Shown piece after piece: positions 8,980 through 64,000 of a stretch of DNA of 64,000 nucleotides (positions are counted from its first letter, which is position 1; every line of letters starts with the position of its first letter). Source of the stretch: Candidatus Omnitrophota bacterium (lineage in GTDB: Bacteria; Omnitrophota; Gorgyraeia; Zapsychrales; Fredricksoniimonadaceae); the NCBI GenBank assembly GCA_903860135.1, contig CAIOPG010000004.1, forward strand, positions 272,648-336,647. Direction: 5' to 3'. The position numbers and the translations under genes were made by a program. The notes under the pieces were generated by a model that was not told where the DNA came from, ran no database searches, and saw only the letters and a program-made list of their open reading frames with translations.

Positions 8980-8988
8980 TTTTGCCAA

Positions 8989-9893: not shown

Positions 9894-9918
9894 GGCATTC
9901 CCTCCTGTTTAATTAAGC

Positions 9919-10282: not shown

Positions 10283-10310
10283 AAGTATAACATACATATA
10301 ATAAGTGTCA
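10283..10310 (-). promoter_or_regulatory. Candidate sigma70-type promoter for the flp array (TTGACA-16-TATACT on minus strand), implying a ~210-nt leader
   Basis: Hexamers read from sequence (TGTCAA 10305-10310, AGTATA 10283-10288 on plus strand). Weak evidence, AT-rich context. Confidence 0.2.
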
Positions 10311-10366
10311 ACGTGCAGAAGCCCGTCATAGACAAGCCTTTGCGGCCCATTGAAAAGATAGGCGAA

Positions 10367-12154: not shown

Positions 12155-12190
12155 ATTTTTTGTCCATTCTGGACATTGCTGCGGCGTTGG

Positions 12191-12538
12191 CTAAAAAGCT
12201 TTAATTTCAATTACATCACCTACGCTGGTCTCTGTTTGCTTAATGGTGCCGATAGGAAGTTCAATGGCACATGTCGCTTTCCAGAAAACAGAACTCATCT
12301 GGTTTGGTTTAATTTCTTCGACCAAACCAACAACAACGCCACGCCTATCAATAAAAACAACATCGATGGCCACTGACATAAAAAACATATGAATAGAATT
12401 GCATGATGTGATCACAAGCCCTTGACCTGGTTCAAGTGACTGCCGTCCTATTAAGCCTTTTGCTCTTGAAAATGGAGTTTTAGCTACTTCAGCGTGTTGG
12501 CTCAAACACTTATTATTCTTAAGATTTTTAATGATCAC
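12191..12538 (-). CDS. DUF192 (COG1430) family protein
   Basis: 115 aa; pattern …AKTPFSRAKGLIGRQSLEPGQGLVITSCNSIHMFFMSVAIDVVFIDRRGVV… typical of DUF192. Confidence 0.5.
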   Translation of the reverse strand: MIIKNLKNNKCLSQHAEVAKTPFSRAKGLIGRQSLEPGQGLVITSCNSIHMFFMSVAIDVVFIDRRGVVVGLVEEIKPNQMSSVFWKATCAIELPIGTIKQTETSVGDVIEIKAF

Positions 12539-14714: not shown

Positions 14715-14724
14715 AGTAGATTCT

Positions 14725-17414: not shown

Positions 17415-17430
17415 AAAGCCATCTCCTGAT

Positions 17431-19715: not shown

Positions 19716-22181
19716 TTATTCTTCTGCCGCGTCATCTTCGCGCGCCACCACATTGGCGATAGAAGCCACCGCGTCTCCGGTCTCGAGCATCACCAGCCGC
19801 ACCCCCATGGCACTGCGACCTGTCAGACGGACATCCGCCGGATTACAACGGATCATCATGCCCTGTTTGGTCATGGTCATCAGCTCGCCATCCTCATGCA
19901 CGACAAGCACGCTGACCACCTGACCATTCTTCGCCGTGCATTTCAAGTTGATGATACCCTTGCCACCGCGCGACTGCACGCGGTAATCTTCAAACTTCGA
20001 ACGCTTCGCATACCCCAGCGAGGCAACGGTCAATAGCGTATTGCCGGTCTTATCCGCATTCTGATCAAAAACGATCATGCCAACCACGGCGTCTTTAGAC
20101 GCCAGGCTGATGCCGCGCACGCCCCTGGCCCCGCGGCCGATATCGCGCAATTGCTGTTCCTGGAAGCGCAGGGATTTGCCCAAACGCGTTGCCAAAAGCA
20201 CATCCTTGTTGCCGTCGGATATTTCAACACCGATCAACACATCATCTTTATCCAGCGTGATGCCGATGATCCCGCCCTTGCGCGGATTGCTGAAGGCGGA
20301 AAGTTTCGTCTTCTTCACAACGCCGTGTGCCGTGGCCATCAGAAGGAACTGGTCGTCCTTGAATTCCTTGACCGCGACAATGGCCGTGATGTATTCATCT
20401 GACGAAAAAGATAAAAGATTAACAATGGCCTTGCCCTTGGACTGCCGGGAAGCCACCGGGATCTCGTACACCTTGAGCCAGCGGATAACGCCCTTGTTAG
20501 AAAAGATAAGAAGATAATCCTTGGACGAGGCCACGAACAGCCTTTCCACAAAATCTTCTTCTTTGGTTGTCATGCCGGTAACACCCTTGCCGCCACGCTT
20601 CTGCTTGCGGTAAGTCTGGACGGGAATGCGCTTGACATAACCCGTATTGGAGATCGTGATTGCCATGTCTTCCTCGGCAATCAGGTCTTCCATTTCTATC
20701 TCTTCGGCTTTCCCGGCAATTTCGGTGCGGCGAGGATCGCCAAATTTCGCCTTAAGGTCAGCCAATTCTTTTTTAATGATCGCATCGACCATGGCGGCAC
20801 TGGCAAGAATGGCACGGTAACCATCGATCGCCTTGAGCAATTCGTTGTATTCCGCGTCAATTTTATCGCGTTCCAGACCTGTCAGTTTCTGCAACTGCAT
20901 TTCCAGGATCGCCTGGGCCTGGATCTCGGTGAGGCCGAACAGCCTCATCAACGATGCCTTGGCCTCGGGTGTCGACGGGGACTTACGGATCGTCTGAATG
21001 ATCTCTTCTATGTTCTTTAGGGCGATGCGCAGGCCTTCGAGGATATGCGCGCGGCGCAGGGCTTTATCAAGATCAAATTGTGTGCGTTTGCGGATAACAA
21101 TACGACGATGATCAATATAATAATCCATCAACTGCTTGAGGTTGAGCACGCGCGGATTATTGTTCACTAAAGCAAGGTTGATAATACCAAACGTGGTCTC
21201 GAGCTGGGTGTGCTTGAACAAATAATTAAGGACAATTTGCGCTTCCACATCACGCCGCAATTCAATGACGATACGAATACCGTCCTTATCCGATTCATCG
21301 CGCAAGTCCGTAATACCGTCAACGGCTTTATTCTGCACCAACGAGGCAATGCTCGACACCAGGTTGGACTTATTCACCTGATATGGGATTTCGGTGATAA
21401 TAATAAAATCTTTGCCATTCTTTTGCTGTTCAATGGCAGCTTTGGCGCGAAGATTGATCTTGCCACGGCCCGTCATGTAAGCATCCCTGATGCCCTCCTT
21501 GCCGCAAATAATCCCGGCTGTCGGGAAATCCGGGCCCTTGACAAAACGCATCAGGTCCTTGATCTCGGCTTCAGGATTTTCGATCAGATGCACAACCCCG
21601 TCGATGATTTCGCCCAGGTTGTGCGGTGGCATATTCGTAGCCATACCAACGGCGATACCGCTGGAACCATTCACCAGCAAATTCGGCATCCCCGACGGAA
21701 GGATCGTCGGCTCTTCGAGCGTTGCGTCAAAATTTGGCGCAAATTTAACGGTTTCCTTATCAATGTCTGCCAGCATACTCTCGGTGATCGACGCCATGCG
21801 GGCTTCCGTGTAACGCATCGCGGCCGCCGCATCACCGTCAACCGACCCGAAGTTACCCTGACCATCAACCAACGGATAACGCAGGGAAAACTCCTGCACC
21901 ATGCGCACCATGGTTTCATACACCGCGGAGTCGCCGTGCGGATGGTATTTACCCAACACTTCACCGACGATACGCGCACTCTTCTTATAAGACTTGTTAT
22001 GCTCCAGATGCAACTCTTTCATCGCATACAGGACCCTGCGGTGCACAGGCTTCAAGCCGTCGCGGACATCCGGCAGGGCGCGCCCCACAATAACGCTCAT
22101 GGAATACGCCAGATAAGAGGACTTCATTTCCTCTTCAATGGCAACAGGAACGATCTTTTCTTTCTTAGTGAAATCTTTCAT
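19716..22181 (-). CDS. gyrA: DNA gyrase subunit A
   Basis: 821 aa; N-terminal …[25 protein letters not shown]… QRDR region; C-terminal beta-pinwheel repeats. Confidence 0.95.
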
Positions 22182-22205
22182 CTATGAAACCTTTGTTAAA
22201 CAAGA

Positions 22206-25000
<2,795 letters not shown>

Positions 25001-26181
25001 AATTTTCTTTACGGATCACACACTTTGTGTCTTGCCCTGATAACTCAAGCTCCACTTCTGTATCCGTTATGTTTTTCAGGATATCCTGCATGTATTGTGG
25101 ATTATACCCCACCATCACTTCATTGCCGCCATAAACGATCGGCAATTCCTCACGGGACTCTCCAATATCGGGTGTTGTTTTTGTCACTATCAATTTATCT
25201 TTGAAAACTTCAAATTTTACTGCCTGATAATCAGGTATAGATAATAAATTGGCTCGACGGATAGCCGCCAGAAAATCCTGGGTGTTGATTCTAACTTTTA
25301 CAGCCGTTTCTTTGGGAATAACCTGTGAATAATTTGGAAAATCTCCTTCAATGATGCGTGTGGCAATTAAAACGCCATTGATATCAAACATCACCTGACT
25401 GGTTCCAGGAACAAACAGCACATCTCCAATATCTTTCAGATTTCTATTTATTTCAGCAACGGCTTTAATAGGTAATATAAAACTTACATCTTGTATTACA
25501 GGTTCCAGCAAAGCGCACTCCATTTTAGCCAAGCGACGACCATCGGTTGCCACTAGACGTAAAATATTTTTTGTGGCTTCCATTAATATACCATTAAGCA
25601 CATACCGTGATTCTTCATGAGAAACAGCAAACGCTGTCATACGAAACATTTCTTTTAGATCTGACTGTTTGATCTTAATGGCTTCTTTATCTTTAAATTC
25701 CGGGAATTTTGGAAATTCTTCTTTGGGCAAACCTAATAATTTAATATTGCAATGCTGACCTTCAATGTCAATTTGATTATTTTTTCGGGTATTGATTACC
25801 ACATCTCCACTGGGAAATTCACGAATAATATCGCTGAATCTTTTGGCTGGAATGGTAATAGCTCCATCCTCCATAATACTAACAGGGATCTCACAGCAAA
25901 TCCCTATATCAAGATCAGTTGTATATAAACATAATGTATCTTTTTTTGTTTCCAACAACATATTGGAAAGAATCGGCAGTGTGGCTTTTGATGAAACAAC
26001 ATTTTGAACAGTTTGGATTCCATAAAGCAGAGCTTCTTTAGTTATTTTAACCTTCATGTTATACACAACTCCTTTATTTCTCTATTTAAAAACACGTTTA
26101 GTAATAATGGTTATAGGTGCTGTGAATATTTTAATAAGTTCAAAAACTATTCAAACATAACGAGTTGTAAAATATATACAT

Positions 26182-26190
26182 TGTGGATAA
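26182..26190 (-). promoter_or_regulatory. DnaA box (TGTGGATAA = TTATCCACA on minus) in dnaN–dnaA spacer
   Basis: Perfect 9-mer consensus read from sequence. Confidence 0.5.
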
Positions 26191-26208
26191 CTTGCAACAT
26201 ACGGTGAA

Positions 26209-27561
26209 CTATTGTTTAAGAATCACCGTTAGCTTATCAATAATATACTTTATTTCACTGTTTTTACTAAGGTTTTCCTCAACTTTTTTACAGGCGTATA
26301 AAACAGTTGTATGATCTTTGCCTCCAAAAGCTTTGCCTATTTCAAGAAGAGAGTGGCGCGTTAAAGTTCGTGTTAAATACATGGCAATTTGCCGCGGAAA
26401 AACAAAAGTTTTTGTTCTTTTGGAACTTTTTAGGTCATTAATATTTAATTTGAAATGATCACAAATGATTTGTTGAACCATTTCAACACTGATAATTTTA
26501 GTTGTTTCCTGAACCATATTTTTTAATACTATTTGTGCTAACAGCATCGTGATTGGCTTTTCCTGAAGGATGGAACTTGCCACAACACGAATAAGGGCAC
26601 CTTCAAGTTCACGTATATTGGTTTTGATTTGTTCAGCAATAAAATATACAACCTCATCTGGAACATGCACATTTTCCAGTTCAAGTTTTTTACGCAAAAT
26701 GGCCACACGATTTTCAAAATCGGGCGGTTGTATATCAACTGTCAAGCCCCATAAGAAACGTGTGACAAGGCGCTCTTCCAGGTCGGAAATTTCTTTGGGA
26801 GGCCGGTCGGAACTGATAACGATCTGTTTACGGTTATCATGCATAGCGTTAAAAGTATGAAAAAATTCTTCCTGAGTTGAACGTTTTCCGGCAATAAATT
26901 GAATATCGTCAATAAGAAGGATGTCGACATTGCGGTATTTTTGTTTAAATTCATTGGTTGTTTTATGATGAATGGATTCAATTAGCTCATTGGTGAACTG
27001 TTCCGACGTTAAATAAACGCATTGGGCAACAGGATTCATGCGTAATACTTCATGCACAAGTGCTTGCATCAAATGTGTTTTTCCGAGACCAGACTGACCA
27101 TAAATGAATAAAGGATTGTAAGCTTTGGCCGGTGCATTGGCAACGGCCTGACTGGCGCGGCAGGCCATTTGATTGGATGACCCAATAACAAAATTTTCAA
27201 ACGTTAGGCGTGGATTAAGATTTGATCTGCCGGGTTTTTTTATAGAAGAAAAAGCCGGTGGTGTTGCTAAAGGGATTGCAATAGCGGGAACATGTTGTTG
27301 ATGAGCCAATGCTTCAAAAGGAACAACCCGTGTTTCGATTTGAATATTTTTTTGTGTATGTGTTTTCAGGATTTCTTGAATCGTATCAAAATAATGTTCT
27401 ACAACCCAATTTTTAAAGAATTCATCTGGGGTTATTAAAGTAAGGGTGTTTTCAGCTTCAGAAACCACATGAAAGTTTGAAAACCACGATAGGTAAGCAC
27501 TATCCCCTATTTTCTGACGAATTTCAGTTTGAGCTTCAGTCCAGACTTTAAGGGTATCCAT
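26209..27561 (-). CDS. dnaA: Chromosomal replication initiator protein DnaA
   Basis: AAA+ Walker A GQSGLGKTHL, DnaA signature, C-terminal HTH (…RQIAMYLTRTLTRHSLLEIGKAFGGKDHTTVLYACKKV…); start taken at MDTLKVW (track start 27597 is a TTG). Confidence 0.9.
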   Translation of the reverse strand: MDTLKVWTEAQTEIRQKIGDSAYLSWFSNFHVVSEAENTLTLITPDEFFKNWVVEHYFDTIQEILKTHTQKNIQIETRVVPFEALAHQQHVPAIAIPLATPPAFSSIKKPGRSNLNPRLTFENFVIGSSNQMACRASQAVANAPAKAYNPLFIYGQSGLGKTHLMQALVHEVLRMNPVAQCVYLTSEQFTNELIESIHHKTTNEFKQKYRNVDILLIDDIQFIAGKRSTQEEFFHTFNAMHDNRKQIVISSDRPPKEISDLEERLVTRFLWGLTVDIQPPDFENRVAILRKKLELENVHVPDEVVYFIAEQIKTNIRELEGALIRVVASSILQEKPITMLLAQIVLKNMVQETTKIISVEMVQQIICDHFKLNINDLKSSKRTKTFVFPRQIAMYLTRTLTRHSLLEIGKAFGGKDHTTVLYACKKVEENLSKNSEIKYIIDKLTVILKQ

Positions 27562-27597
27562 AATACCAGATATTCTTTCTATAGTGGAACATATCAA

Positions 27598-27878
27598 AAC
27601 ACATAAGTCTAATCAAATTAACAACATAGGCGTTTACTAAAAAACAATTAACAAGTTATCCACAGGTGTTAAAATCTTTACGTTGTTGTTTTTGAATATG
27701 TATCATTTAGTTTGGAAGTAGGATTATCTTTTTGCTATAAAAATCAAATTTTGGTTATTATAGCAAAGAACATTTCAATTTCAATGTCATTCTTCCTGAC
27801 CGTCTCAATTCTTGGGTTTGATAATTCAGAATACAGGCTATTGACTTCACAAGAGCGTGTGTTATAATTTGACCCATT
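27598..27878. other. Candidate oriC: AT-rich dnaA–rpmH intergenic region with a perfect DnaA box TTATCCACA at 27656-27664 and AT-rich unwinding-type tract (27700-27780)
   Basis: Position between divergently transcribed dnaA and rpmH; consensus box read directly; other boxes may be degenerate. Confidence 0.45.
27841..27868 (+). promoter_or_regulatory. Sigma70 promoter of rpmH (TTGACT-16-TATAAT)
   Basis: Near-consensus hexamers 11 nt upstream of the rpmH ATG. Confidence 0.6.
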
Positions 27879-28016
27879 ATGAAAAAAACATTAAAAACAC
27901 CCACAAAGATCAAAGGTAAAAAAACACACGGCTTCCGTACACGTATGGCGACAGCAGATGGTCGCAAGGTGTTGTCGAAAAGGCGTGCCAAAGGTCGCAA
28001 GCGTTTAGCCGTTTAA
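27879..28016 (+). CDS. rpmH: 50S ribosomal protein L34
   Basis: Manual translation [45 protein letters not shown] (45 aa); below track size cutoff. Confidence 0.9.
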
Positions 28017-28034
28017 CTGACAGCTGTCACGTTT

Positions 28035-28235
28035 ATGATCTGTTTTTTAATCAGGACCTATCAGACCGCGAGCAGGTTGTTTCTTCCTAAAGCTTGCCGT
28101 TTTTATCCGTCTTGTTCAGCATATACGTTAGAGGCTATTCAAAAATACGGCACCTGCAAAGGCCTGAGGGTGGGGTTTCTCCGTATTTTAAAATGTTCCC
28201 CATTTTCACGCGGGGGCTATGACCCGGTAAGGTGA
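28035..28235 (+). CDS. yidD: Membrane protein insertion efficiency factor YidD
   Basis: CRFYPSCSAY motif; 66 aa. Confidence 0.85.
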   Translation: MICFLIRTYQTASRLFLPKACRFYPSCSAYTLEAIQKYGTCKGLRVGFLRILKCSPFSRGGYDPVR

Positions 28236-28239
28236 TTGT

Positions 28240-29847
28240 ATGGAAAAAAGGTTTTTTCTTGCGGCTGTTTTATCATTAGGTGTTCTTTTTGGTTTTCAAT
28301 CATTTTTTGGGCCAGCGAATAAAAAAGCTCAGCCATCTGCACCTACCCCTCCTTCACTGACCTCTTTTGAAAAAAGCATTGTTCCCGATCCGTTGAACGT
28401 TACCACATCTTTAGCGGAGATTGCCAAAGACACGGCTTCTTTTAATGAAAAAAACATCACATTGGAGAACAAACATTACCAGGTTGAACTGACAAACAGG
28501 GGGGCCAATGTTTCACGGCTTATATTAAAGGAATACGCGTATTCGCTCCCTGTTAGAAACTTGGCTACCCTCGATGCGTTTGATAACCTACCCTTCGCGT
28601 TTGATTTGATTGATAAAAATAAGCTTAAAAGTACACACCAAGGTGACGGATGGTTAGTTGAAAAAGATATCACATTAAATGATAATTTTACGATCAGTAC
28701 CACTATCGTTGTAAAGAATACAGCCACAGTTCCACAAAATTTTATTTCAAAAAGCACAAATATTCTTGTGGACATGAACAGACTGGACAAAAGCAATGTC
28801 CAGTCTGATATGACTTTATTTGAATATGTATTTAAATCAGATAAAAAATTCATCCGTAAAAATAATGTTTCAAATTTTAATGAAAAGTGGAATAAACAAG
28901 AAACATTAAATATTAATTGGGTCGCTTTCAGAGATAAATATTTCGTTGTTCTTGTTCAACCCAAACAAGAAGAAATGAACTATGCAACAAACTTTATTTC
29001 TCCAAAAGAACTTGTCCTAGGCACGCAAAATGAAATAAAAACGGTTGCCCCTGGTCAAACCATCATATATGAGTATAAGATTTTCGCCGGCCCGCAAAAG
29101 TTGGATGTTCTAAAAAATGCCAATAATGGGTTTGAGAAGGTTTTAGTTTTTAGCGATTGGGGTTGGCTCGACGCCGTATCCAAAGCCATTTATTGGATGC
29201 TCGGCGCTATGCACAAGATTGTGCCCAATTGGGGTATCTGCATCATATTTATAAGTCTTTTTGTTTATGGAATTATGTACCCTTTGACTTTAAAAAGTCT
29301 TCTTTCGATGAAGAAGCTTCAAGCACTACAGCCAAAAATGAAAGAACTGCAAGAAAAATATAAAAACAACCAGGAGCGTTTGAGCAAAGAAATCATGGAG
29401 TTGTACAAGGTTAACCAGGTTAATCCTTTGGGCGGCTGTTTACCCATGATCTTGCAAATGCCCATTTTTGTTGGTTTATATCAGGTGCTCTGGCGTTCTG
29501 TTTACTTTCGTGGTGAAAGTTTTCTTTGGATTAAAGATTTATCTATGCCCGATCACACCATTAAACTTCCGTTTACTATTCCTTTTTTAGGAGAATACGT
29601 AAATATTTTGCCTATCCTCATGATTATCATTATGGGAATTCAGCAAAAGTTGAATCTGCAATCGAATAGCACGGGAACAGAAGAGCAGGTTTCACAGCAA
29701 AAAATGATGGCGGTCATGCTCCCTATTCTTATTGGGTTCATCTTCTATAATATGGCCAGCGGTCTAAATCTTTATTTTGTGGTGTTTTATATATTGTCCA
29801 CACTGAGCCAATGGCACATTTCAAAAGACGTGAAAGCCATTGTTTAG
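28240..29847 (+). CDS. yidC: Membrane protein insertase YidC
   Basis: 535 aa; N-terminal TM + periplasmic domain, C-terminal 60KD_IMP core (…PLGGCLPMILQMPIFVGLYQVL…). Confidence 0.9.
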   Translation: MEKRFFLAAVLSLGVLFGFQSFFGPANKKAQPSAPTPPSLTSFEKSIVPDPLNVTTSLAEIAKDTASFNEKNITLENKHYQVELTNRGANVSRLILKEYAYSLPVRNLATLDAFDNLPFAFDLIDKNKLKSTHQGDGWLVEKDITLNDNFTISTTIVVKNTATVPQNFISKSTNILVDMNRLDKSNVQSDMTLFEYVFKSDKKFIRKNNVSNFNEKWNKQETLNINWVAFRDKYFVVLVQPKQEEMNYATNFISPKELVLGTQNEIKTVAPGQTIIYEYKIFAGPQKLDVLKNANNGFEKVLVFSDWGWLDAVSKAIYWMLGAMHKIVPNWGICIIFISLFVYGIMYPLTLKSLLSMKKLQALQPKMKELQEKYKNNQERLSKEIMELYKVNQVNPLGGCLPMILQMPIFVGLYQVLWRSVYFRGESFLWIKDLSMPDHTIKLPFTIPFLGEYVNILPILMIIIMGIQQKLNLQSNSTGTEEQVSQQKMMAVMLPILIGFIFYNMASGLNLYFVVFYILSTLSQWHISKDVKAIV

Positions 29848-56290: not shown

Positions 56291-56701
56291 ATGAAAAAGT
56301 TTATCAAAGCTGACGGCTGGGTTAAAGTTCCGGTACAGACCAAGGCGTATCCCTTGCAAGCGATCTATTCTGCCGGATATGTTTTCATGGACAAGGCATA
56401 CCTTTACCTTGACCTTGAGGCCAAGGACAAGGTGGTGGTGTGGCTTAAGCCCAAGGCCAAGGCTGACCTTGACAAGCTGGCCATGGAGTTTTGCCAGGAA
56501 CTTTTAAATTACGCGCATTATTTCTCCAGTTTGAAAGTCAATGCCGAGAGCACGAAGCTTCTCTTGCAGCGCGCGCTATTTTCGGCGGCTCCGTCGATGG
56601 TCAAGGAAGCTGAAGAGAAAGAGATCCAGGACCTCATCAAGGAGCTCGAGCAGGAAGAGGAGAAAGAAAACCGCAAGCCTGTCAAGAAAGGCAAGAAATG
56701 A
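56291..56701 (+). CDS. Hypothetical protein (136 aa, Lys/Glu-rich C-terminus) at head of radical-SAM cluster
   Basis: ORF only; no motif recognised. Confidence 0.3.
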   Translation: MKKFIKADGWVKVPVQTKAYPLQAIYSAGYVFMDKAYLYLDLEAKDKVVVWLKPKAKADLDKLAMEFCQELLNYAHYFSSLKVNAESTKLLLQRALFSAAPSMVKEAEEKEIQDLIKELEQEEEKENRKPVKKGKK

Positions 56702-56925
56702 GCACGCCTTTTTTAAAGAAAGACAAGACGGGCATTTGCCTTAAACTGCATACGGCTCTGTATGGGCACGATGCCATTGAGCAGTTCAGGGGTGCTTACG
56801 GTGACGGGCTGACATTCGTCAGGCGTGGCGCGTACTGGATCCTTTCTTTTGCCGATGCCCTTGAAGAAGATGTTGTTGATTCTCTGGACAGCCTTCTGGT
56901 TTTATCGCGGAACAGAAAAAAGTAA
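56698..56925 (+). CDS. Hypothetical protein (75 aa)
   Basis: ORF with 4-nt overlap to upstream gene. Confidence 0.3.
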   Translation: MSTPFLKKDKTGICLKLHTALYGHDAIEQFRGAYGDGLTFVRRGAYWILSFADALEEDVVDSLDSLLVLSRNRKK

Positions 56926-56952
56926 TATCAATCCTATTGTGAGAGATGCCCT

Positions 56953-58356
56953 ATGGCCCGAACGAATGATGACGTGATCCTGCCGTTCAATTCCGCTAGG
57001 ATCCGTGATAAATATCTGGTAACAAATATGCTCGGTGCCTGGGAGGTGCTTGATCCGGCGGAATTCAGGCTGTTGAATGCCTTAAAACCCCTGCCCGGGA
57101 CGCCGCTGTGGACGCGCCTCAAAGAGCGCGGGATCGTGGTCGATGACAAGAATATCCTGCCCATGCTTCAGAAGTACCGGGAGCTTAACAGCAATCTTTT
57201 TTCAGATACGTCATTGCACATCGCGGTGGCAACGACGAAATGTAATTTAAGCTGTGCGTATTGTCAGGCAGGAGCCGTACCTCAAGAGGATATGACGTAT
57301 GAGGTGGCCGCCAAGGTGCTCGAATATCTTTTTGGTGTGCGCAATACATCTGTTTCTCTGGAATTCCAGGGCGGGGAGCCGCTCATGAACTGGCCGGTGG
57401 TCAAGTTTGCCATTGAACATGCGCGTCAATATAATACGACGGGAAAGAAGCTCAGGATTTCTGTTGTGACCAATATGCTTCTATTGGATGATGAAAAAAT
57501 GAAGGTTTTGGCGGACAACGATGTTGACGTGTGCACATCTTTAGATGGCCCTAAAGCGGTGCATGATAAAAACAGAAAGTATGTGAGCGGCCTTGGTTCA
57601 TATGACGAGGTGATGGCCAAGATCCGGCGCTTCAAGGAAAGATTTGGCCGGTCTACAGGTCTTTTAGCTACGATTACGGCGGCTTCACTCGATCATGCCG
57701 AGGCGATCGTGGATGAGTATGTCCGGCTTGGCCATACGGAGATATGCCTGCGGCCTGTTAATAACATGGGCACGGCGCGTTGTTCCTGGAGTGATATTGG
57801 TTATTCAGCGGAAGAGTTCAATGCCTTTTACGGTCGCGCGATGGATCACATCCTGAAGCTGAACGCCAAGGGGACATTGATGATGGAGCGGATGGCGCGT
57901 GTGATCCTGACCAAGGTGCTCGAGGGGAAGGACCCCGGGTATGTGGATCTCATGAACCCTTGCGGCGCCGGGCGCACGACCATGGCGTATATGCCCGACG
58001 GCAGTTGTTATCCGTGCGATGAAGCGCGCATGATCGGCGAAGACATGTTCAAGCTGGGGAATATCCTTTTAGAAACATATGATGACATGATCAAGAAAGA
58101 AAACCTGCAACATCTTTTGCAGGCGTCATGTACGAATTTATGGCAGGCGTCGTCAGTGTTTTCCCCCTGGAGCGGGCATTGCCCGGTGGTCAATTATGCC
58201 CTTCAGCAGAATATTGTCCCCAAGGTGCACTGCTCTTCCCAGCACAAGATCATGACCGGGCAGTTCATGTATTTATTTGACAAGATCGTGGCGCAAGGGG
58301 CGGCTCTGGAGACATTCAAGCGGTGGTTAGCAGGAGACAGTCATGGAAAAAAATAA
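56953..58356 (+). CDS. Radical SAM enzyme with SPASM/twitch-type C-terminal Cys cluster (467 aa)
   Basis: CNLSCAYC = CX3CX2C; GGEP motif; C-terminal …NPCGAGRTTMAYMPDGSCYPCDE… and further Cys pairs. Confidence 0.8.
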   Translation: MARTNDDVILPFNSARIRDKYLVTNMLGAWEVLDPAEFRLLNALKPLPGTPLWTRLKERGIVVDDKNILPMLQKYRELNSNLFSDTSLHIAVATTKCNLSCAYCQAGAVPQEDMTYEVAAKVLEYLFGVRNTSVSLEFQGGEPLMNWPVVKFAIEHARQYNTTGKKLRISVVTNMLLLDDEKMKVLADNDVDVCTSLDGPKAVHDKNRKYVSGLGSYDEVMAKIRRFKERFGRSTGLLATITAASLDHAEAIVDEYVRLGHTEICLRPVNNMGTARCSWSDIGYSAEEFNAFYGRAMDHILKLNAKGTLMMERMARVILTKVLEGKDPGYVDLMNPCGAGRTTMAYMPDGSCYPCDEARMIGEDMFKLGNILLETYDDMIKKENLQHLLQASCTNLWQASSVFSPWSGHCPVVNYALQQNIVPKVHCSSQHKIMTGQFMYLFDKIVAQGAALETFKRWLAGDSHGKK

Positions 58357-58636
58357 GAAACAACCCCGGAAGAAGATCGAGATCAAAAAGACCCTGAAAG
58401 CTTTTCTGGCCGATGAGGATGGCTTTGTGAGCAAGGAAACGATCCTCAAGGTCGGCCTCGCCACGGTGGCCGGCATCGGGGTGTTGGGTGCGATGTCACC
58501 CGCTGACGCAGGGCATACCAATTATATGACGCATAATAACACGATGAATTTTACGCCGCAGGTTGTTGATGGTTGTTTGGTTCCCAACACAACGCACACG
58601 AATATGGATGTGCCGTATTCACATAACAGTTATTGA
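58343..58636 (+). CDS. Small protein (97 aa): Lys-rich N-terminus, hydrophobic segment, His/Asn/Thr-repeat C-terminus – candidate precursor peptide
   Basis: …GHTNYMTHNNTMNFTPQVVDGCLVPNTTHTNMDVPYSHNSY with four H-x-(N/S)-x repeats; overlaps the end of the upstream rSAM gene. Confidence 0.4.
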   Translation: MEKNKKQPRKKIEIKKTLKAFLADEDGFVSKETILKVGLATVAGIGVLGAMSPADAGHTNYMTHNNTMNFTPQVVDGCLVPNTTHTNMDVPYSHNSY

Positions 58637-58660
58637 AAAAGTTTCTGCGCGAGGGCCGCA

Positions 58661-59491
58661 ATGAAGAAGTTGTGCAGCATTAATTGTTTATTATTTCTAC
58701 TCGCCGTGTCGTTGTTTGCTGTCACATTTGCTGTTGCCCAAGAAGGGCCTGCACCTGGCGTGGAAGAATCCAGACCTCAGGAAGAAGCTTTGCCAGATGG
58801 TCAGGCATCGTCACATGATTTTTCCAGGATGAGCCCGGTGTTATGGTCTTACGCGGTGGCGGCGACGGATGGGGCGGTTTCGTGTCAGGAGTTATCGACA
58901 GAGAATGGCAAACGGTCGTGTCAACTAGAGGCTAAAGTATTGGCAAGTCGCAGATTGCTGGCAGAAGGACGGTGCGGGCGGTTTGAGTCAGGATCTATTG
59001 CTTTGAAGGTGTGCACGGCCATTAAGGGCAGGAGTTGTGCCTCTTGGCAGGAGCCGATCAGAAGCATATGTGAGGCTGTTATTAAGACAGGCGCAATGGA
59101 TCAACGCACGGTCATGGTGAAAGATGTTGCTGAAAAAGTTGAAATGGCATCACAGGAAGAAACAGATCAAGGCGTGGCGTGGCGGGCAGAGGTTGGCGGA
59201 TTGAAATTGAGCGACCTTGCCATACTTTTTGCAGTTATACAGGGATACCGTGAGCCCGTATTAACCCGACGACAGGAAACGTGCGAAGCGTATGCACGGG
59301 CATATTATGTTGGGGATGGCTTTGATCCTGAATATTTTCGATGTACCATACTGTTCAGCGATGATCCTGTTAAGAAGGCTAAGGATATTGATCGCGACCT
59401 GGACGTGTATCGTTCCGTGCGTAGCGGCGCGGGACGTGAGGCGTGTGACAGCATCCAAACGGTCGTATTGCGGGAAGCCTGCGTGCGTTAA
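58661..59491 (+). CDS. Secreted Cys-rich hypothetical protein (276 aa)
   Basis: Signal peptide (LLFLLAVSLFAVTFAVAQE), ~14 Cys. Confidence 0.4.
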   Translation: MKKLCSINCLLFLLAVSLFAVTFAVAQEGPAPGVEESRPQEEALPDGQASSHDFSRMSPVLWSYAVAATDGAVSCQELSTENGKRSCQLEAKVLASRRLLAEGRCGRFESGSIALKVCTAIKGRSCASWQEPIRSICEAVIKTGAMDQRTVMVKDVAEKVEMASQEETDQGVAWRAEVGGLKLSDLAILFAVIQGYREPVLTRRQETCEAYARAYYVGDGFDPEYFRCTILFSDDPVKKAKDIDRDLDVYRSVRSGAGREACDSIQTVVLREACVR

Positions 59492-59494
59492 TTA

Positions 59495-60514
59495 TTATAC
59501 AGTTTCATGTGGTATAAGGTTCCCGACAGGGAACTTTTTTGTATAGACGGATCGATGTGATTTTATAAAAAGAGGATCCGGTGCCATATAAGAGCCAGAT
59601 ATTGTGTGGGCAAGTGCACGGCTTCCTCCACAGCATTGTGCCAGGCAGATACAAGCGTGGCAGGTCGCCGGAAGGTATGCGGGATCGTTGAGTTGCCTTA
59701 AGAAAGGATGTTTCCATGCGGCCTGCAGATCTGTACCCAGGTTTTCAGGGATAAAGTAACTTGGCTTCCAGAAGCCACGCGCATCCCAGACAAGCCTAGA
59801 ACGTCCGTCGTCGGCCTGGCCGCCAGCCATGACTTTCCTGGCGATTGAAGTGTTGAGCGGGAGGCACAGGGGGAGCGCGTTGCCGATGATGGCATGGATC
59901 CCGTCACCTTGGAGTTTGAGCAATGACCAGCATAATCCGCTATATCTCTTTCGGTCTTGGTCAGGCGGCAGGAACGGCCCAGTCATGGGTCGAAACAGTT
60001 CCCAGGTGTGTGGCCTGATCTTCTTGACAAGGGTCGTGTATTTCGAGAAATTTTGAAGGAGGGTTGGCGTGATCACCGTCCCAAGGCGGACGACAGGGAG
60101 GCAGGCCTTGAGCAGGAAGATATTTCTGATCTTTTCTTCGAATGAAGCGGATGTTCGGGTCATCGCTTGTGTTGAGGTGCTATTAAAGCCCTGCAGGGAA
60201 ATCAGGGCATTGTCAACATGGCTGATGAGGACATTGAGTGCTTGGGGTGTGAGTAAGGTTGCGTTGGTGTTCAGTAAGACATAGAATTTGTGTTGTTTGG
60301 CATAAGCCAGCATGCGCGACAGGTCTGGCACAAGCAAGGGTTCGCCGCCGGTAAAGCGCACGGCGGGAACGTGATAATGCCTGGCCTGGTCGAGGATGTC
60401 TTTGACGGCTGAGAATGTCATGTGCGGGGCGCGTGCGGCAGAATTGGTGCAGTAGCCGCAGTGCATATTGCATTGGCCGGTGATTTCGATGACGATTTCG
60501 GATGGATTCTTCAT
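59495..60514 (-). CDS. Radical SAM enzyme with C-terminal SPASM/twitch-type Cys motif (339 aa)
   Basis: CNMHCGYC = CX3CX2C; GGEPLL; C-terminal …ATCHACICLAQCCGG…. Confidence 0.8.
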   Translation of the reverse strand: MKNPSEIVIEITGQCNMHCGYCTNSAARAPHMTFSAVKDILDQARHYHVPAVRFTGGEPLLVPDLSRMLAYAKQHKFYVLLNTNATLLTPQALNVLISHVDNALISLQGFNSTSTQAMTRTSASFEEKIRNIFLLKACLPVVRLGTVITPTLLQNFSKYTTLVKKIRPHTWELFRPMTGPFLPPDQDRKRYSGLCWSLLKLQGDGIHAIIGNALPLCLPLNTSIARKVMAGGQADDGRSRLVWDARGFWKPSYFIPENLGTDLQAAWKHPFLRQLNDPAYLPATCHACICLAQCCGGSRALAHTISGSYMAPDPLFIKSHRSVYTKKFPVGNLIPHETV

Positions 60515-60557
60515 GTGGCTTTCATGTGTTAAAGATTAATCGAATGTTGATTATAGC

Positions 60558-61343
60558 ATGTGTGTGTTCACCATGCGTTTTGAAGAGAGATTCGGGGGTG
60601 TTGCCATGAATAGGCCGTTGGTTTTCTTGCGCGATGATGATATAGGGACAGATGACGGCATTTTTTTTGAGTTGGCATCTTTTTATTCTGAACGACATAT
60701 CCCGGTTGTTTATGGGGTTATTCCGGATCGTTTGGAATTGCGCATGATCAGCGTCCTTCGGAAAGCCAAAAAGATTGATCCTGGTCTTGTTGATATTGTT
60801 CAGCATGGCTTTCGGCATATAAATTACGCGGCGCCTAAACTGGCAAAATATGAATTTGGCGCACGACGTACGTATGCGCAGCAGTTGCAGGATATTAAGT
60901 CGGGGCTAGGTATCATGCGTAATATTTTCAGTGAAGACTTTACACCAGCTTTTATTCCACCGTATCACGGGTATAATCAGGACACGTTAAAGATTATACA
61001 GGAACTTGGATTTTCTATTTTTTCAGCAGGGCAGTTGGCGGCTCTTTCCGGTAAGGCATTTCTTGATCTTCCGGCGAGGGTGTCTTTGAATGAATTTCAA
61101 CCTGATGGTTCTTCCAGGGTGCTCAATGTCCAAGAAATGATGGCAACGTTTCGGCGGGTGTTTGTGACAGGCGGTGTGATTGGCATTGTGTTTCATCATC
61201 ATCTCATTAAAACATCGGCAGATATGCGAGCGATGAAAGATTTCTTTCGTTCTTTGGTACGCTGGCGAGATGAGGAGAAAATAAGGTTCGGTCTTTTTTC
61301 TGATTTTATTCGTGCACAGGCCAAGAAAAGTGCGGTTGCATGA
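60558..61343 (+). CDS. Polysaccharide deacetylase-like (NodB/DUF2334-like) protein
   Basis: …RDDDIGTDDG…VVYGVIPD…VQHGFRHINY… resembles carbohydrate esterase 4-type D…D / H…H motifs; true start possibly MNRPLVF (60606). Confidence 0.4.
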   Translation: MCVFTMRFEERFGGVAMNRPLVFLRDDDIGTDDGIFFELASFYSERHIPVVYGVIPDRLELRMISVLRKAKKIDPGLVDIVQHGFRHINYAAPKLAKYEFGARRTYAQQLQDIKSGLGIMRNIFSEDFTPAFIPPYHGYNQDTLKIIQELGFSIFSAGQLAALSGKAFLDLPARVSLNEFQPDGSSRVLNVQEMMATFRRVFVTGGVIGIVFHHHLIKTSADMRAMKDFFRSLVRWRDEEKIRFGLFSDFIRAQAKKSAVA

Positions 61344-62233
61344 GAATCCTTTCGCCGTTGCTTTCGGTTAATGAGGTTCAGCCCTTGTGTGAGGTGGGTG
61401 CAGATGATTTCTTTTGTGGTTTGGTAGATAAAGAAAGAACATTGAATAGCCGCCCGAATACCGCAGAGCACAGCTTCAGCAACAAGGAGGATCTTCGACG
61501 GGCTGTGGTTCTGACGCATGCCCAAGGGCGGCGTATCTTTCTGGTCATTAACAGTTTGCCCCCGCTCGACATCAATCGGGGGCTGCGTCAGGCTGTCATA
61601 GCCAAAGAAATCGGGATAGACGGGCTTATTGTGGCCAGTCTTTTGCTCATCAAGAAAATCGATGATCTTGGCCTTGGTCTTGAATTGCAGGCCAGTAGCT
61701 TGACCACGGCGATTAATAGCGAGGCAGTTTTGTTCGCGCAGCGGCTGGGGGTGTCTCACGTTCATCTGCCGACGCAGATCGGCATGGAAGAGCTTGGGCG
61801 AATGATGAAATATGTCCCTGGGATTAAGTTCAGCATTTTTGTCCTCGGCGGCTTGTGTGTTTATGCCGAACAGTTTTGTTCCCTGCATGAAGGTTTCGCC
61901 GAGGATTTTATTCCATGCCAGCATTTTAGGGCTTTGGGCATGGTTGGACGCGGTGGTATGCCTCTAGCAGAATGTGACAAAAGACATAATCAGCCGGCAT
62001 TCAGCTGTGGGCTTTGCGTGGTAAGAAAGTGCCTGTCTTTGGGGGTGGATACGTTGAAAATCGAGGGGCGCTATTTGCCGTTGGACAAAAAAGCACAACG
62101 GGTTTCCATGGTCAGGCAAGTTATTCAGGCAGCAGTGGCTAGTAAGGATGATAATGTTTTTATTCAGCATTGTCAGGGAATTTTTCAAAAGGATCAGGGA
62201 CGTCCATGTAAGCCGGAATTCTGCATTTTTTAA
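61340..62233 (+). CDS. Peptidase U32 family protein
   Basis: N-terminal MRILSPLLSVNEVQPLCEVGADDFFCG (ELLAPAG…GADAVY pattern) and C-terminal …VDTLKIEGR motif characteristic of U32. Confidence 0.6.
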   Translation: MRILSPLLSVNEVQPLCEVGADDFFCGLVDKERTLNSRPNTAEHSFSNKEDLRRAVVLTHAQGRRIFLVINSLPPLDINRGLRQAVIAKEIGIDGLIVASLLLIKKIDDLGLGLELQASSLTTAINSEAVLFAQRLGVSHVHLPTQIGMEELGRMMKYVPGIKFSIFVLGGLCVYAEQFCSLHEGFAEDFIPCQHFRALGMVGRGGMPLAECDKRHNQPAFSCGLCVVRKCLSLGVDTLKIEGRYLPLDKKAQRVSMVRQVIQAAVASKDDNVFIQHCQGIFQKDQGRPCKPEFCIF

Positions 62234-62249
62234 GAACTGGTTGCTGAGC

Positions 62250-62909
62250 ATGACAATGAAAAAAAGTTTGCATAAGGTTCAGCGGTTTGAGCTGGGGCAT
62301 GAAGCCTGCGAGCGGCTGTTGCCATTGCCCATGGTCATTGCCAACGAGAAGAAAAGGGTTGGTCGCGGAGGGCTTTCGCTTGTAACGCCGATCGTCAGTC
62401 AGGATGGATTGAAGCGCATTCAGGATTGGGCACTATTATTGGATGACAATGATGAAATTGTAGCCAATGACCTTGGTGTCCTTGTGATGGTGGATCGTGA
62501 TTTTAGAGCCAGGCCTTTGATCGGCCGTATCCTTGGCCGGAATATTATTCTTTCTTTGGTCGGAATGATCCATGATCCTGTTTTAGCGGAAGAGTTTCTT
62601 GCATTATTAGGCAAGAGGATCGCCGGGATCGAATGTGATGCTGACAGTTCTCCTGATGTGATGTTTTTTTTACAGTCGAAGATGGAGATACGTCCATGCC
62701 ATCGTTCCGGTAAGATATTTGGTGTTACCCGGCGGTGCATCTTTAAGGCCAAAGTGGCAGATAAGTTTGGTGCTTGCCGTAAGGAATGTCAGCATATGAA
62801 AATATTGGCAGCCAATGCGGTGCTGGGCAAGTTGTTTGTGTTGCAAGAGAATGCCCTAATTTTGCATTCATCACCCAGTAACGGGATAAAACGGATGAAA
62901 GACACATGA
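62250..62909 (+). CDS. Hypothetical protein, possible second U32-like subunit
   Basis: Position and weak similarity only; start inferred at MTMKKSL after upstream stop. Confidence 0.3.
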   Translation: MTMKKSLHKVQRFELGHEACERLLPLPMVIANEKKRVGRGGLSLVTPIVSQDGLKRIQDWALLLDDNDEIVANDLGVLVMVDRDFRARPLIGRILGRNIILSLVGMIHDPVLAEEFLALLGKRIAGIECDADSSPDVMFFLQSKMEIRPCHRSGKIFGVTRRCIFKAKVADKFGACRKECQHMKILAANAVLGKLFVLQENALILHSSPSNGIKRMKDT

Positions 62910-63871
62910 TTTTAGAAGCTGGTGAAAAACGCAGGCGTTTTTTGCGGCGCGTTGCCGGGGCCGTGGACGGCAAGGTTTATATTGGTCCGGAACAGGTCTA
63001 TTTGCCGGTTACCAACCGTTGTAATCTGAGTTGCCGTTACTGCTGGTTTCATTCTCCCGGAAATCCCTTGCGCTTGCATCCTCGGCAAGATATGCCGTTA
63101 GCGGATTTTAAGAGGATCGTGCGTGAATGTGTTGCCCTTGAAGTGGATACTCTTTTTCTTTCTGCTGAAGGAGAGCCGACATTACATCCGGAATTCTTCA
63201 GCATGATGTCTTTTTTGAAAAAGCAACCGCTGGAAGTGACCATTTTCAGCAACGGCACATTTTCCTCTGCGCGACGGAAGGATGTTCTTAAAGCGGATCG
63301 TATTGGTATTAATCTTGGTGCCCCGGAGCGTGAAGGTTATAAATTATTGCAGGGGGAGGATCTGTTTGATCATGTGATCAAGAATATAAATTTTTTGGTC
63401 AAGGCTCGGGATAAAAATAAGAAATCATTTAAGATTGGTGTGGATTATGTGGTTAATAAAGATAATATTCATCAGATAAAAGAAACTGAGAAATTCTTAA
63501 GCTGTCTGGGAGTTGATTCTTTCACGCCGACGCTGATGAAGGAGCACGACTGGAATGGCGGCGTGCGCGTGGATGATCCATCGACGTTGTTTTTGGCTGA
63601 AGGCAAACCTTCGCCGCGTTGTTTTCACGGTTGGTTCCAGATGATCAGGGCACTTGATGGCCGGATACGGCTTTGTCCGCAGTTATCGCAGGAGATCATC
63701 GTCGTCGATCAGAATTCTTTACGTGAAACATGGTTTTCAGATAAATTTATGGAATCGCGGTTAAGGGGGCGGTGCGGTGATTTTGGAAAAAAGTTTCGTG
63801 ACTGCAGGCAATGTCTTTATCATCAACGTAATACAGCAGTATTGAAAAGAGTTTTAAAAAGAACGGTATAA
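62906..63871 (+). CDS. Radical SAM enzyme with C-terminal Cys-rich (SPASM-like) region (321 aa)
   Basis: CNLSCRYC = CX3CX2C; …GEPTLHPEF…; C-terminal CFHGW…LCPQ…CGDFGKKFRDCRQC. Confidence 0.8.
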   Translation: MILEAGEKRRRFLRRVAGAVDGKVYIGPEQVYLPVTNRCNLSCRYCWFHSPGNPLRLHPRQDMPLADFKRIVRECVALEVDTLFLSAEGEPTLHPEFFSMMSFLKKQPLEVTIFSNGTFSSARRKDVLKADRIGINLGAPEREGYKLLQGEDLFDHVIKNINFLVKARDKNKKSFKIGVDYVVNKDNIHQIKETEKFLSCLGVDSFTPTLMKEHDWNGGVRVDDPSTLFLAEGKPSPRCFHGWFQMIRALDGRIRLCPQLSQEIIVVDQNSLRETWFSDKFMESRLRGRCGDFGKKFRDCRQCLYHQRNTAVLKRVLKRTV

Positions 63872-64000
63872 GGGTAGTCGGGTATGGGGAAGCTATTGAA
63901 ATATTATGATTATTGCCATGAAGCTTATGAGCCGTTGACAGCTTGCCGGAAGAAGCTATCGTCTGACAGGTTGTTTTATAATTCTCTTGAGGGAAGTTCA

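Follow-up and report, generated by a model that had tools for sequence, protein, structure and literature searches.

A probable Omnitrophota relative of the His-Xaa-Ser peptide maturation system, its precursor family and its partner genes

What is made by a group of genes in which several radical S-adenosylmethionine (SAM) enzymes stand around a small histidine-repeat peptide? The question is raised by positions 56291-63871 of a 64,000-nucleotide (nt) stretch of DNA from Candidatus Omnitrophota (the window), in which a sequence-only reading had seen a peptide-maturation cluster resembling the His-Xaa-Ser (Hxs) system. The canonical form of this system, HXS, was shown in 2026 to function in antiphage defence in Escherichia coli (Li et al. 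2026, PMC13128918), so that the label "bioinformatically defined", which that reading had used for it, is outdated. In E. coli, HxsB, HxsC and HxsD are all needed for the processing of HxsA, which gains 8 Da on one SHRSS motif; HxsA carries a peptidoglycan-binding domain, has been proposed to bind DNA electrostatically and undergoes a non-canonical N-terminal processing, and 99.7% of the canonical systems are found in Pseudomonadota (PMC13128918). The cluster of the window is here interpreted, with a probability of roughly 70%, as an Omnitrophota-type relative of the Hxs maturation system; judged by sequence comparison, it appears to be homologous to that system, to work like one and to fall outside any curated subtype.

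The largest of the three radical SAM enzymes in the window part of the cluster, a protein of 467 aa, is identified by sequence as HxsB. It matches the NCBIfam model TIGR03978 over its full length with 381 bits (cutoff 370), the next-best models being SCIFF (147 bits) and PapB (143 bits), and its best match in the PDB is the SCIFF maturase CteB (5wgg, E=4e-31). Its homologues form at least 120 clusters at 52-79% identity, many of them named HxsB by NCBI or JGI; every organism name given by the source among the homologues listed, the close ones included, is Candidatus Omnitrophota or Omnitrophica, and the best loci from species-representative genomes belong to the same phylum. The two genes ahead of it are recognisable at lower scores. 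The first, of 136 aa, matches the HxsD model TIGR03976 with E=2.8e-8 and 34 bits, below the cutoff of 50, and has a precomputed match to the Pfam family PF27806 (HxsD) at E<=1e-5; the HxsD motifs LYW and LLNDYxLRE are loosely recognisable in it as AYLYLD and ELLNYAHYF. A gene of this type is kept upstream of HxsB in 20 of the 21 Omnitrophota genome loci and also in metagenome loci. The second, of 75 aa, matches HxsD_rel (NF038315) with E=0.0016 and 18.6 bits, below the cutoff of 41, and open reading frames (ORFs) of 71-75 aa occupy its position in six related loci (L005, L008, L009, L043, L087 and L088). A curated HxsA3-type locus in a Clostridia metagenome-assembled genome (L029), in which all Hxs models score above their cutoffs, has the order HxsD, HxsD_rel, A24 peptidase, HxsC, HxsB, MORN protein, HxsA3; its true HxsD_rel (62.6 bits) directly follows HxsD, which shows that a long and a short HxsD-type gene ahead of HxsB, as in the window, are an established architecture. 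The proposed likeness to the Hxs system is thus borne out, by HxsB above its cutoff and by sub-threshold matches for HxsD and HxsD_rel.

Directly 3' of HxsB stands the gene of the putative substrate, a peptide of 97 aa. It consists of a Lys-rich leader, the invariant stretch DEDG27-FVSKE32, a transmembrane (TM) helix spanning residues 33-51 and a short tail that contains HTN58, HNN64, C78, HTN85 and a C-terminal HNSY, that is, four H-x-N/S motifs (HNS94 included) and one Cys. All four His of the ORF lie in H-x-N/S, and only one of them in H-x-S. The peptide can be aligned over its whole length with 44 distinct Omnitrophota homologues; in an alignment of 21 sequences, D24, E25, G27, V29, K31, E32, L35, G38, L39, T41, G49, H85, N87, H94 and Y97 are invariant, and C78 and S96 are nearly so. 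Across the 44 peptides, 175 of 196 tail His fall in H-x-[NST], as against 73 +/- 6.4 (maximum 93) in composition-preserving shuffles, an excess that reflects conservation of the motif and not independent events, because the sequences are related. Residues 1-23 contain nine K/R and two D/E, and the mean Kyte-Doolittle hydropathy of residues 33-51 is 1.76; from this basic N-terminus and hydrophobic segment, an orientation with the N-terminus inside and the C-terminus outside is predicted.

The peptide belongs to a large family. Its profile retrieves 216 clusters (at 50% identity) with E<=1e-3 among 1.84 billion proteins, and of 168 retrieved peptides (listed matches together with the earlier homologues), which are mostly 77-150 aa long and in many cases end in SY, 140 have at least three H-x-[SNT] motifs; the database copies are all named "hypothetical protein" in GenBank. 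In every related locus examined the peptide gene directly follows HxsB, and its start usually lies at or just before the HxsB stop. A chance ORF was considered as its source and was ruled out, since its conservation extends over more than 60 loci and 216 protein clusters. The sequence-only reading had described this ORF as a His-repeat peptide, which the four motifs and the family of 44 sequences confirm, and had tied its own fate to the conservation of the small ORF beside radical SAM genes in other genomes; it is not refuted, because the small His-repeat ORF is kept 3' of HxsB everywhere examined. One relative (L023, 11344-12596) has two tandem precursor genes, with the ends ...HSSNCY and ...HTSNCY, followed by a 233-aa Cys-rich protein with 13 H-x-S/T motifs.

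Compared with the curated precursors, the peptide scores 24 bits against HxsA3 (cutoff 65), over the leader and TM region only; it has no match to the HxsA model TIGR03979, and no peptidoglycan-binding domain was found in it with Pfam. The Omnitrophota peptides as a group reach 15-47 bits against HxsA3, with the same cutoff, and stay below every curated HxsA model, whereas precursors from Clostridia and from Elusimicrobia/Deltaproteobacteria exceed the HxsA3 or HxsA4 cutoff. The layout is nevertheless that of HxsA3 (NF038309) and HxsA4 (NF038313), in which a basic N-terminus, an acidic-Gly motif and a TM helix likewise precede the His repeats; the difference lies in the tail, which in Omnitrophota has three to five degenerate H-x-N/S/T motifs, a conserved Cys and a terminal HxSY in place of long HGS or HSS arrays.

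The 16 proteins of the extended cluster (see below) were compared with three sets of loci, about 60 related loci altogether: 21 Omnitrophota genome loci found through HxsB, the extra contigs of HxsB homologues, and 38 metagenome loci retrieved independently through the peptide. The genes for HxsD, HxsB and the peptide are adjacent wherever DNA is available. To the conserved core belong HxsD, HxsB and the peptide, together with a secreted Cys-rich protein and a SPASM enzyme of 339 aa; an A24 prepilin-type peptidase and a GT28-like gene usually accompany it. The modal order is HxsD, optionally HxsD_rel and an HxsC-like gene, HxsB, the peptide, one or two copies of the Cys-rich protein and the GT28-like gene, after which come the 339-aa radical SAM gene and the A24 gene on the opposite strand, then a B12-radical SAM gene and a further radical SAM gene. 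ORFs with the radical SAM motif lie within 10 kb of HxsB mainly on its downstream side (38 against 12 upstream, in 15 loci with full flanks).

The Cys-rich protein of the window, of 276 aa, has 12 Cys and a signal-peptide-like, Sec-type N-terminus (MKK..., a hydrophobic stretch, AVA|QEG), as had been claimed for it. It belongs to no Pfam or NCBIfam family and received no fold assignment, and a word search found four homologues only. A hidden Markov model (HMM) of the genes of about 250 aa that follow the peptide elsewhere, in which the 276-aa protein is not included, detects it with E=6.7e-9; members of the family turn up in 16 of the 21 genome loci, and almost no metagenome locus lacks one. 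Within one closely related locus (L008, 3263-7498, compared with 56291-60514 of the window), identity falls from 97% for HxsD, 93% for HxsD_rel and 91% for HxsB to 75% for the 339-aa enzyme and on to 54% and 39% for the peptide and the secreted Cys-rich protein, respectively; in the peptide the leader is conserved while the tail diverges. The steepness of this gradient within a single locus, with the leader kept and the tail changing, suggests that the exported parts are under diversifying evolution.

Such divergence beside enzymes that are 91-97% identical would fit an arms race, and the accessory gene content of the loci is highly variable. Such features could be expected if the cluster were functionally orthologous to the antiphage HXS system of E. 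coli, with its matured periplasmic peptide blocking the entry of phage DNA; the homology of HxsB and HxsD and a His-repeat effector that would be exported after radical SAM-dependent maturation agree with what is known from E. coli (PMC13128918). This identity of function is nonetheless considered unlikely. The peptide lacks a peptidoglycan-binding domain, and electrostatic DNA binding in the manner of HxsA is left without an obvious basis because the tail has neither Arg nor Lys. The locus keeps a fixed chromosomal position beside housekeeping genes such as glnS (in L003, L005, L008, L087 and the P0003 contig) and is widespread among the sampled Omnitrophota, not patchy like a defence island; PADLOC, which predates the HXS paper, reports only a generic viperin-type radical SAM similarity, and a scan with the peptide found no copies on viral contigs. 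A scan of viral contigs with the U32 protein discussed below was also negative.

With the canonical HxsABCD system (TIGR03976-03979) the cluster shares, besides HxsB above its cutoff, an HxsD-type gene in first place and more than one radical SAM enzyme, as well as a ribosomal product with a His-x-small-polar repeat that is encoded beside the enzymes and, here by prediction, targeted outside the cytoplasm. It differs in that no HxsC adjoins HxsB, a remote HxsC-like gene lying 5.5 kb downstream; in that the precursor has 97 aa and a leader with a TM anchor instead of a Sec signal; in that its H-x-N/S repeats lack basic residues and its phylum is not Pseudomonadota; and in its extra partners, namely the Cys-rich protein, the 339-aa SPASM enzyme and, in relatives, the A24 and GT28-like genes. 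With the curated variants it shares a pair of HxsD-like and HxsD_rel-like genes, and two HxsA3-type loci (L029 and L035) have an A24 gene, as do most Omnitrophota relatives; the order D-D_rel-(A24)-(C)-B-x-A of L029 is matched by Omnitrophota loci. The true HxsC of L029 (286 bits) is, however, replaced here by remote relatives (HxsC4 being NF038332), and a secreted Cys-rich protein stands where those loci have a MORN-repeat protein (between HxsB and HxsA3, at 11409-12335 of L029 and 6822-7718 of L035). The description "undescribed variant" holds in so far as no curated model covers this type, but not for the system as a whole, since NCBI already names HxsB of Omnitrophota and curates HxsA2-A4, HxsC4 and HxsD_rel.

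The place of HxsC among the other enzymes was sought by comparison with NCBIfam models and BLASTP. The sequence-only reading had matched the enzyme of about 340 aa to HxsC by size, which is not upheld: HxsC is absent among the best 25 NCBIfam matches of both the 339-aa and the 321-aa enzyme, and the HxsC-like gene lies outside the window. The 339-aa enzyme, with a C-terminal Cys cluster at C285/288/290/294/295, reaches no NCBIfam cutoff (best AhbD, 87 bits against 500); as an equivalent of HxsC it was rejected, its BLASTP matches to HxsC- and HxsC4-type proteins being no better than E=1e-10, and it may be a functional substitute for HxsC. Of the 21 genome loci, 13 have an orthologue (32-75% identical in 12 other genome loci), as has each metagenome locus whose downstream sequence reaches 3 kb; the orthologue is typically on the opposite strand and adjoins a polytopic Peptidase_A24 gene. 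The 321-aa enzyme (Radical_SAM 57.8 bits, weak SPASM; best NCBIfam model tungsten-cofactor maturase, 92 bits against 380) is 49% identical to a 327-aa paralogue 4.4 kb downstream on contig L003, which continues the cluster beyond the window. The sole HxsC-like gene of that contig, which is not adjacent to HxsB, encodes a radical SAM enzyme of 291 aa beyond the window end; it is by sequence a remote HxsC relative, with 79 bits against HxsC4 (cutoff 500), 59 bits against the third-ranked HxsC (cutoff 268) and a BLASTP match to an HxsC4-type protein at E=1e-24 and 26% identity. Cofactor maturases (MoaA, PqqE, AhbD/NirJ, tungsten-cofactor maturase and anSME) were also tried as identities of the enzymes and rejected, all of them lying far below their cutoffs; radical SAM proteins of known cofactor-biosynthesis families, one half of the outcome named beforehand as fatal to a peptide-maturation cluster, were looked for in NCBIfam and none was found at cutoff.

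A peptide-modifying function is in keeping with the general features of SPASM maturases of peptides that are made by the ribosome and modified after translation (RiPPs), such as CteB, PapB, anSME, HtkB and HaaB. These likewise combine a radical SAM core with SPASM auxiliary clusters, and in the window CX3CX2C, C-terminal auxiliary Cys and a small conserved precursor beside the enzymes are all present. Enzymes of this group form thioethers and cross-link His C2 to C-beta on three-residue motifs, HtkB and HaaB acting on His-x-x (PMC11499958). By contrast, none of these families is reached at cutoff here, and the product is probably a membrane-anchored tail and not a released peptide.

The positions of the genes are collected in Table 1. 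All ten genes listed by the sequence-only reading were found where it had placed them, yet they amount to only about half of the cluster: the window end cuts through it, and contig L003 (ENA), which shows no mismatch to the window over 11,095 shared nt, carries it 6.7 kb further and adds, at its positions 10979-17640 beyond the window end at 64000, five more radical SAM proteins. The extended cluster thus has eight radical SAM proteins in about 14 kb. Three of these had been reported within 7 kb as CX3CX2C enzymes with C-terminal Cys clusters, in agreement with the motifs (C97/101/104 in the 467-aa, C15/19/22 in the 339-aa and C39/43/46 in the 321-aa protein, each with a C-terminal cluster) and with Pfam, by which all three are assigned Radical_SAM and the 467-aa protein also SPASM, a domain that the 321-aa protein matches weakly. 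Only four of the 40 window ORFs of at least 200 aa contain CX3CX2C, and three of the four are those within the 7 kb of the cluster. The fourth, an ORF of 929 aa on the minus strand (3422-6211) within a Tad locus and without a Pfam family, is probably a coincidence in a large Cys-containing protein.

Table 1. Coordinates of the cluster genes and of related features (window positions unless a contig or locus is named)
Feature	Position	Strand	Remarks
HxsD-like protein, 136 aa	56291..56701	+	First gene of the core operon; NCBIfam TIGR03976
HxsD_rel-like protein, 75 aa	56698..56925	+	4-nt overlap with the HxsD stop; NF038315
HxsB radical SAM/SPASM maturase, 467 aa	56953..58356	+	TIGR03978; Pfam Radical_SAM and SPASM
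Precursor peptide, 97 aa	58343..58636	+	Start overlaps the HxsB stop by 14 nt; alignment of 44 homologues
Secreted Cys-rich protein, 276 aa	58661..59491	+	Detected by HMM of the genes after the peptide elsewhere
Terminator-like hairpin and T-run	59516..59537	+	9-bp stem, then TTTTGTAT; just past the 276-aa gene's stop codon
Radical SAM/SPASM-type enzyme, 339 aa	59495..60514	-	Convergent with the core operon; Pfam Radical_SAM
DUF2334/polysaccharide-deacetylase-like protein, 261 aa	60558..61343 (alternative start 60606)	+	First gene of the downstream operon
U32-family UbiU-like protein, 297 aa	61340..62233	+	4-nt overlap with the DUF2334 gene; PF01136
U32 partner, 219 aa (219-253; ORF open from 62148)	62250..62909	+	UbiV-type Cys pattern
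Radical SAM/SPASM-twitch enzyme, 321 aa	62906..63871	+	4-nt overlap with the preceding gene
282-aa gene, 5' end	63884..64000	+	No known family; the cluster leaves the window here
291-aa HxsC-like radical SAM enzyme, MiaB/RimO-like enzyme, 507-aa double radical SAM protein, 327-aa radical SAM enzyme, 409-aa B12-radical SAM-like protein	L003, after the 282-aa gene		
A24 genes, Omnitrophota loci	L005, L007, L009, L012, L013, L016-L019, L022, L023, L038, L043, L087, L088		
A24 genes, further Hxs loci	L029 7879-8892; L035 3296-4315; L026 10125-11051; L027 667-1743		

The leader of the precursor recalls another kind of exported protein. A basic N-terminal part, a Gly where cleavage would take place (position -1), an acidic residue in position +5 and a hydrophobic helix are shared with the Flp/Tad prepilins, which are processed by A24 peptidases (TadV/CpaA). 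A24 genes occur in 15 of 23 Omnitrophota loci, where they score above the Pfam cutoff and have both catalytic Asp motifs; in non-canonical Hxs loci they are found in three unrelated lineages, namely Omnitrophota, Clostridia with HxsA3-type loci, and DPANN archaea, and no NCBIfam model covers them. Being embedded in Hxs loci of three lineages, these genes suggest that Hxs precursors with a TM leader are processed like prepilins. The peptide itself could be a pilin-like subunit of Flp/Tad type that has a class III signal peptide and a tail decorated by radical SAM enzymes, displayed or assembled by pilus machinery. The invariant G-x4-E followed by a hydrophobic segment of about 19 residues has the same spacing as the G-x4-EY of seven Flp-like pilins of the window, which contains a Tad pilus locus, and Tad systems are common in Omnitrophota (PMC10066038). 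A pilin in this full sense is improbable all the same: four members of the peptide family gave no match to the Flp, pilin and class III signal families of Pfam, even at E<=10; the hydrophobic segment contains a Lys; and in the related HxsA3 and HxsA4 leaders position +1 is K, S or N and position +5 is not Glu. The peptide, moreover, differs from prepilins by its His-repeat tail and radical SAM partners, no pilus-assembly genes (ATPase or platform) lie inside the Hxs-like loci, and the window has no A24 gene.

The Tad locus is complete-looking and occupies 1240-17414 on the minus strand. It includes two T2SSF (TadB/C-like) genes, the seven small Flp-like pilin genes at 7913-10077, one of which matches PF04021, an ATPase that is a ParA/TadZ-T2SSE fusion (12528-14714), a secretin whose C-terminal domain is TonB_C (14725-16578) and RcpC/CpaB, and is interspersed with large proteins of 929, 485 and 595 aa that have no Pfam family.

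The part of the cluster that follows the 339-aa gene is less easily assigned. From the DUF2334 gene onward the gaps are at most 41 nt and several start and stop codons overlap by 4-8 nt. The 261-aa protein at its head, which had been called deacetylase-like, exceeds the Pfam cutoffs of both PF10096 (DUF2334; 37.6 bits, cutoff 26) and PF01522 (Polysacc_deac_1; 23.7 bits, cutoff 23.1), and its homologues lie near HxsB in seven other loci (L005, L009, L011, L023, L043, L087 and L088). Of the two proteins earlier taken together as U32-family members, the assignment stands for the first, of 297 aa, which matches Peptidase_U32 (PF01136) with 85 bits, and not for the second, of 219 aa by the gene finders, in which U32 homology is not detectable. 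The 297-aa protein, at 72 bits against UbiU (NF047963; cutoff 440) and 62 bits against TrhP (cutoff 534), is by these scores not an orthologue of either; its C173-X6-C180-X12-C193 and C223/C226 are invariant in three homologues. For the 219-aa protein no Pfam or NCBIfam family and no PDB match (phmmer) were found, BLASTP against the 297-aa protein was negative, and an AlphaFold2 model from the single sequence had a predicted local distance difference test score (pLDDT) of 29.

UbiU and UbiV form a heterodimer in which each subunit has one [4Fe-4S] cluster, and their ligand motifs are CX6CX16CX38C and CXnCX12CX3C, respectively (PMC6747719). The 219-aa protein has C20...C163-X12-C176-X3-C180, that is, the UbiV motif, a likeness in pattern and not in detectable sequence. 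The two adjacent genes thus resemble the UbiU-UbiV pair (U32 also includes TrhP and RlhA), the first being a U32 protein with CX6C...C...C and the second having the UbiV pattern; they differ in the spacing of the first, CX6CX12CX29C(X2C), and in the context of peptide maturation. UbiT was not found among the cluster genes scanned. Elsewhere the pair was seen in L010 (45% and 43% identity) and in the Woesearchaeota locus L026 (22% for the 219-aa partner), hence near HxsB in only two of the other approximately 60 loci and in none of the 38 metagenome loci, and a metagenome scan with the U32 alignment gave no confirmed relatives; the pair cannot count, as had been implied, among the general components of the system. 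Beyond the window, the MiaB/RimO-like enzyme (187 bits against 251) and the double radical SAM protein occur elsewhere only in L007, where they directly follow a second HxsD gene. The second domain of the double radical SAM protein matches HxsC with 81 bits, and the pair of 282-aa gene and HxsC-like radical SAM gene is also present in L007 and L016.

Two unrelated neighbours might accordingly lie side by side: an Hxs-like core at 56291-60514 and an independent anaerobic small-molecule pathway of the DUF2334, U32, MiaB-like, B12-radical SAM and other radical SAM genes, which would make or modify a cofactor, a lipid, or a quinone-like or sugar compound. None of the 38 metagenome loci and hardly any genome locus has the U32 pair, MiaB-like gene or double radical SAM gene, and glycosyltransferase and sugar-modifying genes surround some related loci. 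The substrates of the characterised U32 Fe-S hydroxylases are all quinone precursors or RNA, not peptides (PMC6747719; PMC10990095), and in the top-ranked literature on U32, RiPPs, radical SAM and hydroxylation the term U32 does not appear. A strand switch and a terminator-like hairpin, possibly the end of the core operon, separate the two parts; since promoter and terminator scans of the region gave no more sites than shuffling leads one to expect, the hairpin is weak evidence for such an end. On the other side, the contig's only HxsC-like radical SAM gene sits inside the downstream operon, many loci have DUF2334, B12-radical SAM and 321-/327-aa-type radical SAM genes at most 10 kb from HxsB, the MiaB-like and double radical SAM genes of L007 stand beside an HxsD gene, the U32 pair is found again near HxsB in L010 and in the archaeal L026, and none of the downstream genes scores at or above cutoff for a family of cofactor biosynthesis. 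Taken together, a division into two unrelated neighbours is possible but rather doubtful.

Returning to the interpretation as a relative of the Hxs system, the following course of maturation is suggested. HxsB would act in the cytoplasm on the H-x-N/S motifs of the tail, perhaps also on its Cys, with HxsD and HxsD_rel as partner or peptide-binding proteins, as would be expected because HxsB, HxsC and HxsD of E. coli mature HxsA (PMC13128918); the most plausible reactions are a radical cross-linking or a C-H functionalisation like that of the SHRSS motif of E. coli HxsA. The other radical SAM enzymes would assist; the 339-aa SPASM enzyme and the HxsC-like enzyme may add further steps, possibly on the conserved Cys, given the thioether and His cross-link enzymology of SPASM proteins (PMC11499958). 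Owing to the positive-inside leader and the TM helix, the tail would then come to lie beyond the cytoplasmic membrane and meet its likely partner there, the fast-evolving secreted Cys-rich protein. The leader would in most relatives probably be removed after the invariant Gly by the A24 peptidase of the locus; in the genome of the window such a peptidase, if used, would be encoded elsewhere. Lineage-specific tailoring is the most likely contribution of the downstream operon: the U32 pair would hydroxylate anaerobically, and methylthiolation or methylation and a deacetylation would be further steps. This is proposed because the sole HxsC-like gene belongs to the operon and because some of its other parts are met again near HxsB; it is the weakest link of the scheme. 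As biological roles, metal binding and an interaction with phage or host at the envelope come into consideration.

Several points weigh against this interpretation. All of its reactions are inferred; HxsD, HxsD_rel and the peptide stay below the curated cutoffs; no HxsC is found next to HxsB; and the window and L003 have neither an A24 peptidase nor a GT28-like gene, although most relatives have them. The MiaB-like gene and the double radical SAM gene have one other locus each and none among the 38 metagenome loci, and the U32 pair is rare too; their link to the peptide depends on operon structure only. The strand switch and the hairpin between core and downstream operon count on the same side. 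The counts of conservation, finally, are not independent, because the loci are phylogenetically related.

A bolder combination of these elements is also conceivable, though it is regarded as a long shot. The TM-leader precursors of Omnitrophota, of Clostridia with HxsA3-type loci and of DPANN archaea would be prepilin-like and cleaved by a dedicated A24 aspartic peptidase after the invariant Gly, and their His-rich tails, cross-linked by radical SAM enzymes, would form a surface-displayed mini-pilin or envelope effector that co-evolves with the Cys-rich partner and is here hydroxylated without O2 by the UbiU/UbiV-like pair. If true, no earlier U32 Fe-S hydroxylase would have had a peptide as its substrate.

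Two further observations concern the contigs. Both contigs of the window organism that were read end at the same point, after the B12-radical SAM gene; on the P0003 contig shown (123.7 kb; HxsB 79% identical) hxsB is the last gene listed, and among the 17 contigs with the P0003 HxsB many are short. Contig ends around the peptide and radical SAM genes may reflect strain-level heterogeneity or repeats. The window also contains a replication-origin neighbourhood (19716-29847), with gyrA, gyrB, dnaN and dnaA on the minus strand, followed by yidC on the plus strand; a gene-strand switch, the minimum of the cumulative GC skew and a GC dip to 0.32-0.36 coincide at about 26-28 kb, and the only two perfect DnaA boxes of the window (TTATCCACA; 26182-26190 and 27656-27664) flank dnaA (26209-27597, minus strand).

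The Hxs system as a kind is already known (Haft's TIGRFAMs; Li et al. 2026), and NCBI labels HxsB of Omnitrophota. The Omnitrophota precursor family, the partner set and the expansion to eight radical SAM proteins with a UbiU/UbiV-like pair appear to be undescribed, and the top-ranked literature searched does not mention Hxs in Omnitrophota. Omnitrophota are a phylum of mostly ultra-small, probably host-dependent bacteria, and a large unannotated branch of the Hxs system, with its own precursor design and partner set, would be a stable feature of them. The function of Hxs is a recent finding and its chemistry unsolved, and short precursors with few conserved H-x-N/S sites could ease the study of HxsB-type enzymes. 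The recurring A24 genes suggest a processing route for Hxs precursors with a TM leader. If the UbiU/UbiV-like pair, the MiaB-like enzyme and the B12-radical SAM enzyme act on the peptide, anaerobic hydroxylation and methylthiolation would be extended to RiPP-like products.

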